The notes under the pieces were generated by a model. The model was not told the origin of the DNA. It saw only the letters and a program-made list of their open reading frames with translations, and made no database searches. A DNA stretch of 64,000 bases, from assembly GCF_024521635.1 (NCBI RefSeq), contig NW_026250415.1:434001-498000 (forward strand), read 5' to 3'. This DNA comes from Tricharina praecox. Its lineage: Eukaryota. How positions within the stretch are numbered: position 1 is the stretch's first letter; each line of letters begins with the position of its first letter. Shown here piece after piece: positions 49,330 to 56,421 of the stretch. The translations under genes were made by a program, and so were the position numbers.

Positions 49330-50616
49330 CGTCGTTTACTTCTGAGGAGCGGGGAGGGGGGGGGGGGAATGCTGGGGGAGACGGGGGTGGGGGGAGGTGA
49401 AGATATGGAAGATCGAACGAGTGCTGATGAGCAAACGAAAGGCGAGTGCGTGCGAGTGATGTCGGGTCTACCCAAAACGAACGGCGCCCGGAATGGTGCA
49501 TATCGGGCTGTAGGCTTCAGATGGTTAGATGCCACGACTCCCGTCGGGATGCGGACACCCTGCCTGGGAAATTTCGGTTCGTGCGTGCGGTGGGACTATT
49601 GGCCGACGTCCTGGAGGAGATATTTCCGCTGGCTTCGATAACTATCGCGCCGGATCAAGCGTCAAACGAAATCGATCGTAATCCGTTGGTCATGTAATAT
49701 TGCTAACGGCTCATGCATGTGCTCGCACCGAGCACCTGACCGATTAGGCTACACGTAAAGACTATGACACTATAGTCTCTGACAATATAGGTAGTGGAAG
49801 CCCCTCCGGTAGAGAAGAATACTGGTTCCATGGTTCGCAACAGTCAGCCCTGGGCATGTTAGCAGTTGTTCGATAACGGATTGCTTTTTTCGGACACAGA
49901 ATCTTCACCTGAATGAAATCAGTGCTTTCAAGGCTGGGACCATGGTGTCTACCAGCCGCGGGGCGGCGAATGACGGCTGATGATACCGGTTCTCTGCCGT
50001 GGCTTGGGTGTCTTCGCTTTCAGCCATCTAGTACCTTGTATACTGTTGACTGTGATCCGAAGGAGAATGAGGTTCGTAACCTGGGTATCGGCTCAAGGAG
50101 GCGCTGCAGCAGACCGCATCACCAAAGTCTGGGCATGGGCCCTACTATGTATACCAGCATGGAAGTACTACATGCTGCATGTATTTTGTGATCAGTGGCG
50201 TCGAGGAGCCACAGAACATGCACTCAGACAGAGGAAAGTATAGATCGCTGTGTAGCAGTGCCACTTTCCTTTCCTAGACTTGTAGCCCTGTCGCCACGGC
50301 GAGCATACAAAATAGCCTAGACCCACATCCTAGCTAACAAACATCGAACCATCCCGCAAAGCTACAGCCCTCACCCATACAAGCACGTAATCCACTTCCA
50401 GTCGCATACCCAAAAGAATCTTCAAACTGATATCGCAACCGCACCATATCATAAACGTAGGCATGCTCTACCGACACAAGCATCCAGCTCTGCATAGCAG
50501 TAGCATCCCAAAGAGCAACAGAGACTGTCAGATCACGCCATTTGGCTCAAATTAGCATGATTATCATAGCGGGAACTAAGGTACGAGAGTAGCACCCACG
50601 CGCTCTCGGTTCCACC

Positions 50617-53600
50617 CTAGGCTTGAGGTCCATCGTCACGCTGCCAGGTCGAGTGACTTTGAAGGACTCTGTCAGATTGTTCGCCAAACGGTGCAGCTGG
50701 ATGCACCGCCGCCGGTGACGTCGGGTTGTGAGAGGCTAGTTCCCTATAGAGTCAGGCCAAACAGGCACCACTTAGCCGCCGTCATCGACATTTCCAGATC
50801 AGAAGGACTCACTTTCTATCGAATCAAGCCAAACAGGCACCACTTAGCCGCCGTCATCGACATTTCCAGATCAGAAGGACTCACTCTCTATCGAATCAAG
50901 CCAGGCAGGCACCACTTAGCCGCCGTCATCGACATTTCCAGATCAGAAGGACTCACAAGCTATCGAATCAAGCCAAACAGGCACCACTTAGCCGCCGTCA
51001 TCGACATTTCCAGATCAGAAGGACTCACCGGCTATCGAATCAAGCCAGGCAGGCACCACTTAGCCGCCGTCATCGACATTTCCAGATCAGAAGGACTCAC
51101 AAGCTATCGAATCAAGCCAAACAGGCACCACTTAGCCGCCGTCATCGACATTTCCAGATCAGAAGGACTCACAAGCTATCGAATCAAGCCAAACAGGCAC
51201 CACTTAGCCGCCGTCATCGACATTTCCAGATCAGAAGGACTCACTCTCTATCGAATCAAGCCAAACAGGCACCACTTAGCCGCCGTCATCGACATTTCCA
51301 GATCAGAAGGACTCACCGGCTATCGAATCAAGCCAGGCAGGCACCACTTAGCCGCCGTCATCGACATTTCCAGATCAGAAGGACTCACAAGCTATCGAAT
51401 CAAGCCAAACAGGCACCACTTAGCCGCCGTCATCGACATTTCCAGATCAGAAGGACTCACTCTCTATCGAATCAAGCCAGGCAGGCACCACTTAGCCGCC
51501 GTCATCGACATTTCCAGATCAGAAGGACTCACTTTCTATCGAATCAAGCCAAACAGGCACCACTTAGCCGCCGTCATCGACATTTCCAGATCAGAAGGAC
51601 TCACTCTCTATCGAATCAAGCCAGGCAGGCACCACTTAGCCGCCGTCATCGACATTTCCAGATCAGAAGGACTCACAAGCTATCGAATCAAGCCAAACAG
51701 GCACCACTTAGCCGCCGTCATCGACATTTCCAGATCAGAAGGACTCACTCTCTATCGAATCAAGCCAGGCAGGCACCACTTAGCCGCCGTCATCGACATT
51801 TCCAGATCAGAAGGACTCACTCTCTATCGAATCAAGCCAGGCAGGCACCACTTAGCCGCCGTCATCGACATTTCCAGATCAGAAGGACTCACTCTCTATC
51901 GAATCAAGCCAGGCAGGCACCACTTAGCCGCCGTCATCGACATTTCCAGATCAGAAGGACTCACTTTCTATCGAATCAAGCCAAACAGGCACCACTTAGC
52001 CGCCGTCATCGACATTTCCAGATCAGAAGGACTCACTCTCTATCGAATCAAGCCAGGCAGGCACCACTTAGCCGCCGTCATCGACATTTCCAGATCAGAA
52101 GGACTCACAAGCTATCGAATCAAGCCAAACAGGCACCACTTAGCCGCCGTCATCGACATTTCCAGATCAGAAGGACTCACTCTCTATCGAATCAAGCCAA
52201 ACAGGCACCACTTAGCCGCCGTCATCGACATTTCCAGATCAGAAGGACTCACCGGCTATCGAATCAAGCCAGGCAGGCACCACTTAGCCGCCGTCATCGA
52301 CATTTCCAGATCAGAAGGACTCACTTTCTATCGAATCAAGCCAGACAGGCACCACTTAGCCGCCGTCATCGACATTTCCAGATCAGAAGGACTCACTCTC
52401 TATCGAATCAAGCCAGGCAGGCACCACTTAGCCGCCGTCATCGACATTTCCAGATCAGAAGGACTCACTCTCTATCGAATCAAGCCAAACAGGCACCACT
52501 TAGCCGCCGTCATCGACATTTCCAGATCAGAAGGACTCACTCTCTATCGAATCAAGCCAGGCAGGCACCACTTAGCCGCCGTCATCGACATTTCCAGATC
52601 AGAAGGACTCACAAGCTATCGAATCAAGCCAAACAGGCACCACTTAGCCGCCGTCATCGACATTTCCAGATCAGAAGGACTCACTCTCTATCGAATCAAG
52701 CCAGGCAGGCACCACTTAGCCGCCGTCATCGACATTTCCAGATCAGAAGGACTCACTTTCTATCGAATCAAGCCAAACAGGCACCACTTAGCCGCCGTCA
52801 TCGACATTTCCAGATCAGAAGGACTCACAAGCTATCGAATCAAGCCAAACAGGCACCACTTAGCCGCCGTCATCGACATTTCCAGATCAGAAGGACTCAC
52901 CGGCTATCGAATCAAGCCAGGCAGGCACCACTTAGCCGCCGTCATCGACATTTCCAGATCAGAAGGACTCACAAGCTATCGAATCAAGCCAAACAGGCAC
53001 CACTTAGCCGCCGTCATCGACATTTCCAGATCAGAAGGACTCACAAGCTATCGAATCAAGCCAAACAGGCACCACTTAGCCGCCGTCATCGACATTTCCA
53101 GATCAGAAGGACTCACCGGCTATCGAATCAAGCCAAACAGGCACCACTTAGCCGCCGTCATCGACATTTCCAGATCAGAAGGACTCACCGGCTATCGAAT
53201 CAAGCCAGCCAGGCACCACTTAGCCGCCGTCATCGACATTTCCAGATCAGAAGGACTCACTCTCTATCGAATCAAGCCAAACAGGCACCACTTAGCCGCC
53301 GTCATCGACATTTCCAGATCAGAAGGACTCACCGGCTATCGAATCAAGCCAGGCAGGCACCACTTAGCCGCCGTCATCGACATTTCCAGATCAGAAGGAC
53401 TCACAAGCTATCGAATCAAGCCAAACAGGCACCACTTAGCCGCCGTCATCGACATTTCCAGATCAGAAGGACTCACTCTCTATCGAATCAAGCCAGGCAG
53501 GCACCACTTAGCCGCCGTCATCGACATTTCCAGATCAGAAGGACTCACAAGCTATCGAATCAAGCCAAACAGGCACCACTTAGCCGCCGTCATCGACATT

Positions 53601-55851
53601 TCCAGATCAGAAGGACTCACAAGCTATCGAATCAAGCCAAACAGGCACCACTTAGCCGCCGTCATCGACATTTCCAGATCAGAAGGACTCACCGGCTATC
53701 GAATCAAGCCAGGCAGGCACCACTTAGCCGCCGTCATCGACATTTCCAGATCAGAAGGACTCACAAGCTATCGAATCAAGCCAAACAGGCACCACTTAGC
53801 CGCCGTCATCGACATTTCCAGATCAGAAGGACTCACTCTCTATCGAATCAAGCCAGGCAGGCACCACTTAGCCGCCGTCATCGACATTTCCAGATCAGAA
53901 GGACTCACTCTCTATCGAATCAAGCCAGGCAGGCACCACTTAGCCGCCGTCATCGACATTTCCAGATCAGAAGGACTCACTCTCTATCGAATCAAGCCAG
54001 GCAGGCACCACTTAGCCGCCGTCATCGACATTTCCAGATCAGAAGGACTCACAAGCTATCGAATCAAGCCAAACAGGCACCACTTAGCCGCCGTCATCGA
54101 CATTTCCAGATCAGAAGGACTCACCGGCTATCGAATCAAGCCAGGCAGGCACCACTTAGCCGCCGTCATCGACATTTCCAGATCAGAAGGACTCACTCTC
54201 TATCGAATCAAGCCAGGCAGGCACCACTTAGCCGCCGTCATCGACATTTCCAGATCAGAAGGACTCACTCTCTATCGAATCAAGCCAGGCAGGCACCACT
54301 TAGCCGCCGTCATCGACATTTCCAGATCAGGAGGACTCACAAGCTATCGAATCAAGCCAAACAGGCACCACTTAGCCGCCGTCATCGACATTTCCAGATC
54401 AGAAGGACTCACAAGCTATCGAATCAAGCCAAACAGGCACCACTTAGCCGCCGTCATCGACATTTCCAGATCAGAAGGACTCACCGGCTATCGAATCAAG
54501 CCAGGTGGACACCGTTTAATGGGTATCAACACTGCAGTGGTGGTGGCTGACTTACTTTAAGTCGTAGCGTCTAGAAAATGAGATCACATTAGCACCCCCT
54601 ATTTCTCTCTCCAGGGACATTCTTGGAGAATTCACTGCTCAGTTTGCTCGACCACCACATGCCAACGGCGGATTCGCATGAGCGCAGTTGCCTCATTCTG
54701 AGTCGCGTCTGCTGGAGCCTGAGCGCTGTCGTCTTCTGAAAGCTCCGTGATTCGCGGCTCTGACGATACTTGAAACCACGTCCCACAGATGGTACTTTGG
54801 GAAACACATGATAGTTTAGTATGGTAGAATCGCAACATCATCCGAAGTGTAGGTACCATCGAACCCGTTCAAGGTCATTGCCCTTGCCGTAGCCTCTATA
54901 CGCAGTGCGGCAACTAGGACACTCCTGTTCTGTTCCTCGAACCGGGTCTTGCTGCTTTTTCAGTCGCATAGACATGGAAAGGGTCTTGCCTGGTGATATG
55001 GTGTCTTCCCAGCTTGCCGGGGTAATCATTGCGGCGTTGTTATCTTCATCGAAGATTGCAAATGATTTGCTTTCAACCCACACGCTTTCCCGCCCGCCCC
55101 GGAAGCCTCCCCGTACTGCTTCGTGAAAGGCCTAGTGTATTGTAAGGTTCATACTTGACTGAGTACGCTTCGAACGAGGCTTGTACAAACCTCCCATGTA
55201 ACGCACCACTCGTACGGGAGCGTCATTTTTCTATCGAACGCGTCTACAAATCTGATGGGCTTGTTGTCGCTCCAATTATCAAGGCTTTGCGGAACTTGTG
55301 GCCGTTGCATACTTTGCAAGGCGACGCACATGTCTTCAATCCGATGCAAAGCTTGCCTGTAAACGTGAAAGAACCCGATTAGATCATGCATCGTCAGCGG
55401 CGGATACTGCCATCACCCACGCATTGTGAACGGCCAACAGCATCTCTATCGCTTCGATGTGCCCTTGGAGCCGGCGAAACAGCTCACTCGTATCGGCCTT
55501 CAGGCCCCCCCACTTCAGCTTTCGTGATGTATCTTTCACCTTCTTCCCCGATCCTCCTGGTGAAAGACTGGCATCGTATTTCTTGGTGATTTCGTCAAAA
55601 TTCCGTAGAAGCTGAGAACACTCGCTAAGGTGTTTCTTTGCCGCATTGGTGAAGGATTTCGGCATGGAGCTGGGTTTCGGGGACTGGAATTCAGCCTCCA
55701 CAATGGCAATGGTCGTTCCGAGGGAGCCCCGTATGAGCTTCAGAGTCTGGTAATTGGCGGAAGACCCTGTGCTGTCCTGGAGGCAGGCATATGCTTTGAT
55801 CGCGACATTGCTGGCGGCGATAAAATCGCCGATGCCGAAACCGAAAGACAT
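50617..55851 (-). CDS. HeLo-like-N (fungal STAND N-terminal type) + ubiquitin-like + Cys4 Zn-ribbon protein with 52 codon-sized microexons (58 exons, 442 aa if all included)
   Basis: Exons 55851-55421, 55356-55191, 55131-54857, 54794-54636, 54570-54556, 52 x 3 nt (54487-54485 ... 50815-50813, period 72), 50743-50617: 1329 nt, open throughout. N-terminus MSFGFGIGDFIAA...LSECSQLLRNF...RKLKW; IRFVDAFDRKMTLPYEWCVTWE...WEDTISPGKTLSMSM; CPSC...CTIC. The first four exons are secure; the microexon part is predicted from splice signals. Confidence 0.8.
50744..54555 (-). repeat. 72-bp tandem array: 69-nt intron + 3-nt microexon units (52 microexons, 53 flanking introns)
   Basis: Minus-strand unit GTGAGTCCTTCTGATCTGGAAATGTCGATGACGGCGGCTAAGTGGTGCCTG(TT/CC)TGGCTTGATTCGATAG followed by AGA x20, CTT x17, CCG x10 or AAA x5. 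Confidence 0.95.
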
Positions 55852-56421
55852 TGGAGGCGACGTCTAGGCTCAACGGTAGCGTGGTGGACTGTAGGTGGTG
55901 GTGGTGGTGGTGGTGGTGGAGTGCAAGGTGGTGGACTGTATCTTTGCTGCTGTTCTGTGGGCGGGGAAAGAACACCGCGGGGCCCGGGCGAAAATTCGGT
56001 ATACACTTATTTTTACTGCCGTGAGGGGTATGTATCTCGGCCAGTTTCACAGGATGTTGCATGAGTGCGGTACTGGTACATACTGTCCAACACGGGTTAC
56101 ATGATGATTGGCGCCACCAAGAACATTCACGGCTGACACTGCGTGTTTTCCGTCTACGGGCTCATCATCAAAAGACACAAAATAAACACGGTAGAGCCAA
56201 TGGACGACCTGTATACGCAAGCGCTCTCTTGATGCTTCGTCCGCTTTCGCCGATTGCAATAACTGCCTTCAGAAATCGAGATGTTCGTCCTATCATATCA
56301 ACTAAGTGAAGTGACTCCGACTCCTGTGCCCCGAACAGGTTTACACTCCGAGTCCGTCGCACTATGGCTCAGAAGTACCTCAAACAAAAAGCTCTGGGGC
56401 TGGTCATCACAATGGTTTCAT

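Follow-up and report, generated by a model that had tools for sequence, protein, structure and literature searches.

Several described systems share features with the locus analysed here. The micro-exon genes (MEGs) of Schistosoma contain runs of very short exons of 3–81 bp, in multiples of three (PMC10526429). In recursive splicing, described from Drosophila Ubx and other genes, a 3′ splice site stands directly, or almost directly, before a 5′ splice site and the intron is removed stepwise, with each step re-creating the substrate (10.1101/006163). That the spliceosome can include a 3-nt exon is documented by single microexons such as that of RPS24 (PMC12207440), and dozens of consecutive tandemly repeated introns occur in one transcript in SNHG14 (SNORD115/116; PMC11608373). 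In fungi, the WD40 repeats of het-d and het-e undergo concerted evolution and repeat reshuffling, with a few positions under diversifying selection, and recognition alleles result (PMC1805685). We analysed a 64,000-nt stretch of the Tricharina praecox genome (RefSeq assembly GCF_024521635.1, contig NW_026250415.1, positions 434,001–498,000 of the forward strand), hereafter the window, whose numbering is used throughout. An ordinary gene of this fungus, with its ATG at 55851, carries at its 3′ end a tandem array on the same (minus) strand. We consider it probable that this array is a minisatellite of units made of an intron and a 3-nt exon, which is decoded by stepwise splicing and adds a strain-variable tail to the protein.

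Tandem Repeats Finder reported the array at 50744–54503 on the minus strand, with a period of 72, 52.2 copies, 95 % matches and no indels, as the sole long-period tandem repeat in the window. It consists of 52 head-to-tail units of 72 nt, each made of a 69-nt GTGAGT...TAG intron and a 3-nt exon. Composed of head-to-tail units of tens of bases with high identity, it belongs among the minisatellites, or variable number tandem repeats. The 5′ end of the unit reads GTGAGTCC in 52 of 52 units, while its 3′ end reads GATAG in 51 of the 52 and TATAG in the last one. Spacing from unit to unit is exactly 72 nt (69 + 3) in 51 of 51 cases, and AG and GT are set apart by three bases at all 52 sites. The 15-mer at the 3′ end of the unit is confined to the array within the window, save for two chance-level matches with 3 mismatches. 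The 3-nt exons draw on four triplets only, namely AGA (20), CTT (17), CCG (10) and AAA (5). The first lies at 54487–54485 and the last at 50815–50813, precisely where the original prediction had placed them, and between these limits (50813–54487) an exon occurs every 72 nt, with 51 practically identical 69-nt introns separating the 52 exons. Ahead of the array, intron 5 (54488–54555, 68 nt) has a unique 5′ part (GTAAGT...), and its last 16 nt (54503–54488) already belong to the repeat unit. The last array intron (50744–50812, 69 nt) carries three changes near its 3′ end, which give CTGAC..TATAG, and adjoins unique sequence.

The coding sequence from the ATG through four exons amounts to 1031 nt, two bases over whole codons, and the following 15-nt exon (54556–54570) preserves the phase. 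The array is therefore entered with two bases of a codon already in place and is read in phase 2, so that every codon in it takes two bases from the end of one microexon and its third from the start of the following one. Full inclusion gives 53 junction codons, which encode only R, F, L, D, E, N and K and are followed by the 41 codons of the terminal exon. The phase and the peptide had both been proposed before from the DNA, and the peptide was reproduced letter for letter. The coding part of the terminal exon (50617–50743, with the stop ending at 50617) is open for 41 codons in phase 2 compared with 23 and 2 in the other phases, also as predicted; no Pfam family was found in it. The product predicted for full inclusion has 442 residues, of which the array supplies 53, and the triplets together with the 15-nt exon make up 171 nt (15 + 156) of about 1.33 kb of coding sequence. 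By its predicted composition, the tail would be a charged/hydrophobic C-terminal stretch on a ULD_2-domain protein. The expected effect of skipping also holds arithmetically, as omission of one microexon removes one residue and changes its neighbour only within F/L, D/E or N/K. Retention of any one unit brings the frame to xxG TGA, i.e. one more residue and then a stop.

As in the Schistosoma MEGs, the exons are short and symmetric (52 of 52 have 3 nt and the entry exon has 15 nt), and any subset of them stays in frame. However, MEG exons are of varied length and sequence, and the introns around them are long (up to 5 kb) and unrelated, whereas here all have 3 nt and are separated by near-identical 69-nt introns. 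The proteins encoded by MEGs are also secreted and owe most of their coding sequence to microexons, while here they account for 53 of 442 residues in a protein whose N-terminus is non-secreted by appearance. The array resembles the ratchet points of recursive splicing in that an acceptor nearly abuts a donor and the segment would be removed in successive steps; ratchet points, however, are zero-nucleotide exons in very long introns and leave nothing behind, whereas the 69-nt segments here leave three bases each. Known 3-nt microexons are isolated or few per gene, regulated, and situated between long introns, and none of them forms a tandem array of identical units. With the het-d/het-e repeats the array shares near-identical tandem units, strain-variable unit number and order and variation at a few positions per unit. 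In those genes, though, translation covers the entire unit, with the variable residues located on a folded propeller, whereas here 69 of 72 nt are spliced away and one codon's worth remains per unit. The introns of SNHG14 carry a snoRNA (small nucleolar RNA) of the box C/D type and its exons are non-coding, whereas here the exons are in the reading frame and no RNA family or stable fold was found. Full-text literature searches, judged by titles and the beginnings of abstracts and with supplements and subscription journals outside their reach, did not find a tandem array of 3-nt exons; they returned isolated 3-nt exons, schistosome MEGs, recursive splicing and snoRNA-hosting tandem introns only. 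To our knowledge, 3-nt exons are regarded as the extreme limit of spliceosomal definition and are known as isolated cases.

The splicing of the array was followed in contigs of four of nine listed public runs, which were compared with positions 54400–56300 of the window, a region covering about 1.4 repeat units. One of these runs (X1) is a soil DNA run, and the RNA label of the other three (X3, X4 and X5) is a guess. X3 and X4 each provided one long contig (1235 and 1294 letters, respectively) without all three upstream introns, which have GT..AG borders on the minus strand. The X5 contigs are without two of the three, and X1 runs straight through all three unspliced. Because the upstream GT-AG introns are missing in them, we consider the X3, X4 and X5 contigs to be derived from RNA. 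Both long contigs depart from the genome at 54636, exactly at the predicted donor (54635), and continue with the 15-nt exon, which confirms both of these elements of the original prediction. Beyond 54636 the X4 contig has 195 letters, and the 30 shown are the 15-nt exon and CCG CTT CTT AGA AGA, which are the first five microexons of the window in the same order. The length of 195 equals 15 + 156 (52 x 3) + 24, as would fit a contig in which all, or nearly all, of the 52 triplets are included and the terminal exon has begun. The X3 contig has 132 letters beyond 54636, starting with the 15-nt exon and AAA AAA CTT AGA CTT. A second X3 contig covers the other side of the array and reads the 3′ end of a unit, AAA AAA and, joined to these, the first letters of the terminal exon. 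The gene is transcribed and freed of its ordinary introns, splicing uses the donor at 54635 and includes the 15-nt exon, and the triplets are joined to each other and to the terminal exon.

These joints bear on a simpler view, that of a non-coding minisatellite which is left unspliced and lies in the 3′ untranslated region (UTR), or else downstream of a gene whose end is the TGA at 54634–54632. The GT donor of intron 4 (54571–54635, 65 nt, GTGAAT..CTAG) overlaps this would-be stop (CAG TGA versus CA/GTGAAT, 54632–54635), so an unspliced transcript ends the protein there, reading ...EQTEQ and then stop, and the unspliced frame of a diverged relative described below (L001) likewise stops five codons on. 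However, the only contig across 54635 in X3 and in X4 is spliced at the donor, the depth in the next bin is 0, and the triplets are joined to one another and to the terminal exon. The contigs keep phase 2 and contradict the 3′ UTR placement, which had been named in advance as an outcome that would overturn the phase-2 reading. For the dominant form the view is contradicted, a minor unspliced isoform is conceivable, and as an account of the array as a whole we find it hardly credible.

Whether 54635 is spliced therefore decides between a protein of 344 residues and the long-tailed form. In the public gene model, P0001, a hypothetical protein of Tricharina praecox with 350 residues, the donor at 54635 is used and the 15-nt exon is included (its letters, giving ...QRYDL, are also present in the loose ends of X3 and X4). 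In the region of 54413–54570 on the minus strand, the model then continues with N, L and a stop, that is, a CTT microexon running into the GTGAGT of the unit. It ends in this way because a retained unit gives one residue and then TGA. The annotated 350-aa protein is truncated relative to the predicted spliced form (442 aa with full inclusion).

Regarding the upstream part of the gene, exon 1 (55421–55851, with the ATG at 55851–55849) encodes an N-terminal helical domain; its 144-aa translation is 100 % identical to P0001 and it is present in spliced contigs of X3, X4 and X5. Intron 1 (55357–55420, 64 nt, GT..AG) is removed in the same three runs (joint 55355>55420, cut +1) and not in the DNA run X1. 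Exon 2 (55191–55356) follows from the spliced contigs and the coding reconstruction, and intron 2 (55132–55190, 59 nt, GT..AG) is absent from X3 and X4 (joint 55130>55190, cut +1). Exon 3 (54857–55131) encodes the ubiquitin-like domain ULD_2 (PF22893), which Pfam recognizes on P0001 with E = 2.8e-22 (residues 174–256, 79.2 bits against a gathering cut-off of 24.5) and on the exon alone with E = 9.3e-09. Intron 3 (54795–54856, 62 nt, GT..AG) is removed in X3, X4 and X5 (joint 54794>54857), and exon 4 (54636–54794) ends two bases into a codon, where the match of the RNA contigs ends as well. The encoded protein thus combines the helical N-terminal domain and ULD_2 with a zinc-ribbon-like CxxC pair. 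Language-model look-alikes of its N-terminal 150 residues are Ascomycota clusters, a minority of whose members carry SesA (21 %) or PigL_N (26–29 %), and we treat this likeness to the SesA and PigL_N families of fungal STAND/NLR proteins as a lead only. In the 5′ leader, just 5′ of the start codon, there is a CCA/CAC triplet run at 55886–55928 (minus strand), which was repeat-masked in the contig comparison and at which the RNA contigs appear cut.

Partly spliced forms of the array were also recovered, namely CTT AGA in X4 (depth 510) and CCG AGA in X3 (depth 580), each flanked by unspliced units. If X4 is the strain of the window, its CTT AGA form is a splicing intermediate in which an inner intron has gone before its neighbours, and the partly spliced contigs suggest that there is no strict 5′-to-3′ order of removal. 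The summed unit depth in 54400–54527 was 4772 in X3 and 16556 in X4, which after division by 52 corresponds to about 5 % (X3) and 11 % (X4) of the exon depth, contig depth being a poor measure of level. In both runs the depth was 0 in the bin 54528–54591, which takes in the greater part of the two unique introns that precede the array, and 0 to 2 in the intergenic flank. As a weak hint, these values suggest that the array is cleared slowly and that its introns persist, be it in precursors or intermediates or as excised units.

Short fungal introns are recognised by intron definition, and each 69-nt unit would be recognised singly in this manner, with GCTAAG at −28 or TTGAT at −9 as its candidate branch point. 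The 3-nt exon would be too small to accommodate complexes on both sides at once, and neighbouring introns would then be removed in succession, with each removal enlarging the flanking exon. Stepwise removal without strict order may make the array slow to clear. The process would be akin to recursive splicing, except that a triplet would be left behind at each step.

The lingering units could also mean that the role of the array lies in the RNA, with the peptide as a by-product. Serial intron removal would then delay or gate the mRNA or give truncated or degraded products, or the excised units would become small RNAs. This would agree with the abundance of partly spliced contigs, with a unit depth per copy of about 5–11 % of exon depth against 0 in 54528–54591, and with the termination one residue into any retained unit; tandem introns each yielding a small RNA are known (PMC11608373). 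However, the depth comparison is subject to the caveat given above, and the unit matched no Rfam family at E up to 1. Folds of one unit, three units and exon-spanning 31-mers were no better than those of shuffles (z −0.6 to +0.5, with +0.5 and −0.15 for the unit folds), and the same applied to a small hairpin able to place the microexon in its loop. We regard an RNA-level function as very improbable.

Variation among the units is unevenly placed. Six of 72 columns vary among 51 units, namely all three of the exon, positions 52 and 53 of the intron and a singleton, and the remaining 66 are invariant. The presence of all three exon columns among the six variable ones has P = 3.4e-4 under uniform placement, and the concentration of variation in the exon columns is far beyond chance. 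With no more than four exon alleles, in which the first base goes strictly with the other two, the diversity reflects reshuffling of a few unit types and not free mutation. Positions 52 and 53 (e.g. 54431–54433), 15 nt ahead of the 3′ splice site, are the sole recurrent variable site in the intron, reading TTT in 26, CCT in 23, GCT in one and TCT in one of the 51 units. This site is linked to the next exon, with TTT before 17 of 17 CTT and 4 of 5 AAA exons and CCT before 16 of 20 AGA and 7 of 9 CCG exons (chi-square P = 4e-7, permutation P < 5e-5). Both the relative L001 and the unique intron that precedes the array have CCT at this site as well. The succession of unit types is random-like (the longest run that recurs has 5 units, compared with 5.3 in shuffles), and no higher-order repeat structure was found in the array. 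The units may be kept identical by unequal exchange or conversion, and fast reshuffling of few unit types would make the tails differ among strains. Such homogenisation and reshuffling would be as in the conserved repeats of fungal het/NLR genes.

Differences between strains are indeed seen. X3 differs from the window by one letter in 1065 aligned exon letters, yet has another triplet order. Its array opens differently from the order shared by the window and X4 (one comparison), has AAA AAA at each end and thus departs from the window at both ends, and its order is not derivable from that of the window by simple skipping. A C>A difference at 55523 is common to X3 and X5, and from this shared substitution together with the different order we conclude that they represent another strain with another array. 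Because the X3 exons are near identical and the microexon order is different, the array changes much faster than the flanking exons. The difference in order between strains is equally compatible with a variable surface and with a fast-evolving, tolerated minisatellite.

A protein-guided scan of metagenome contigs yielded nine loci. The protein of one of them, L001, is 56–72 % identical over the whole gene. Its frame reaches ...EQTE and then a donor at the homologous position and in phase 2, with GC (GCGAGT) instead of GT. A 74-nt intron follows, which ends in GGTTTGATTCGATAG, matching the 3′ end of the unit, and then come GCA, GTGAG and the contig end (1729–1810). The 15-nt exon is absent from L001, and its first microexon, GCA, lies outside the four-triplet alphabet of the window; of the alphabet and phase that had been put forward for comparison in homologues, only the phase is shared. 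Because L001 enters GCA in the same phase, phase-2 entry into a 3-nt exon predates the split of the two fungi. The X1 contig breaks like L001, few bases into the first unit. The other eight loci (paralogues with 25–36 % identity and one short 71 % match) showed no array. A long-period tandem repeat was present in none of the nine, and the motif was found in L001 only.

The original prediction went further and saw in the tail a selected recognition or decoy surface, for which regulated skipping and reshuffling among strains would yield helix-compatible variants. Such a surface would have its analogue in fungal non-self recognition genes, whose highly conserved repeats contain hypervariable positions, and het-d/het-e recognition alleles are described as arising by concerted evolution, reshuffling and diversifying selection at a few positions (PMC1805685). 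The focus of variation in the exon triplets with 66 of 72 columns invariant, the different triplet order in two nearly identical strains, the entry into the first microexon kept in the diverged L001 and, as a lead only, the look-alikes with SesA or PigL_N would all agree with it. However, the linkage of the first base within only four exon alleles precludes free variation at the third codon position, and L001 starts with a triplet from outside the alphabet. No periodicity of 2 to 7 residues was seen in the hydrophobic positions (P 0.41 to 0.71 for 3.5, 3.6 and 7), and the helical hydrophobic moment of the tail is not above that of shuffled orders (P = 0.15), so the helix-compatible design was not borne out. 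The stop-free alphabet was correctly noted, as phase 2 indeed contains no stops, but it does not carry the meaning given to it. Random four-triplet alphabets in the same order were stop-free in phase 2 in about 69 % of 20000 trials, phase 0, in which the exon is the codon, is likewise stop-free across the array, and we reject the alphabet as evidence of coding. No exon skipping was seen in the contigs, which cannot show minor isoforms, and no partner, secretion signal or phenotype is known. We therefore hold a recognition surface with these properties to be distinctly unlikely.

Our default is that the tail is tolerated and loosely constrained, in that it has to be in frame, spliceable and stop-free; that it is selected for its sequence appears unlikely. 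More speculatively, the array could be a hypervariable-peptide code, in which a shuffled string of units is decoded by splicing and each unit would give two codon positions and the wobble position of the previous codon. Strain 'barcodes' would then be displayed on a SesA/PigL_N-like and ubiquitin-like protein for self/non-self or other fast-evolving interaction, and where splicing is incomplete or alternative, variants in length and sequence would arise as a further, somatic layer. We think of this as an unlikely candidate.

The opposite strand was considered as well. The plus strand might encode a protein of 24-residue repeats resembling leucine-rich repeats (LRRs), with one or two variable residues per repeat, in which case the minus-strand signals would be incidental. 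On the plus strand, two frames run through the entire array without a stop (1326 and 1266 codons), frame 2 reads each of the two variable triplets as a complete codon, and frame 1 (50580–54560) aligns in register with 24-residue LRR_6-type repeats (NR..A..I..GLTS) at about 30 % identity and E down to 1.8e-17. However, there is no ATG before or within the repeats in either frame, the E-values are inflated by counting one weak unit match six times, and the search with frame 2 was without match. No Pfam LRR family was found, the Pfam matches being summed over repeats with 0 stretches passing alone, and the RNA contigs remove these very units by minus-strand GT..AG. With no start codon and no Pfam LRR, the LRR-like match of frame 1 was judged to be a repeat-inflated coincidence, and we give a plus-strand protein next to no credence.

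Several points weigh against the reading that we prefer, a minisatellite decoded by stepwise splicing into a strain-variable tail. The intron-skipping contigs are the sole ground for taking the runs as RNA, and contigs carry no information on isoform ratios, strand or ends. As 30 letters were visible per loose end, the joined microexons seen are five at the 5′ side and two at the 3′ side, not all 52, and the lengths of 195 and 132 letters fit full or near-full inclusion without proving it. The partly spliced forms of X3 could be genomic 6-nt exons of that strain, and for the X4 form such an origin is unlikely only if X4 is the strain of the window. The splicing order, the branch point and the steric argument draw on general splicing knowledge, and the tail peptide is a prediction from the nucleotide sequence. 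L001 shows one microexon only, and its donor would be GC, not GT. The random-like order of the units is unlike what simple recent block duplication predicts, and we found no explanation for the second variable site, inside the intron.

The array points to a blind spot in annotation, as the public model stops two residues into it and short-read assemblies break there, and it should be of interest to specialists in splicing and genome annotation. With 52 consecutive 3-nt exons and identical 69-nt introns, it represents a natural test bed for intron definition without room on both sides of the exon. It bears on how a choice is made among dozens of identical donors and acceptors and on whether the order of removal matters. 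The array also illustrates how a minisatellite can expand within coding sequence while the frame is left intact, and so give rise to strain-variable protein tails.

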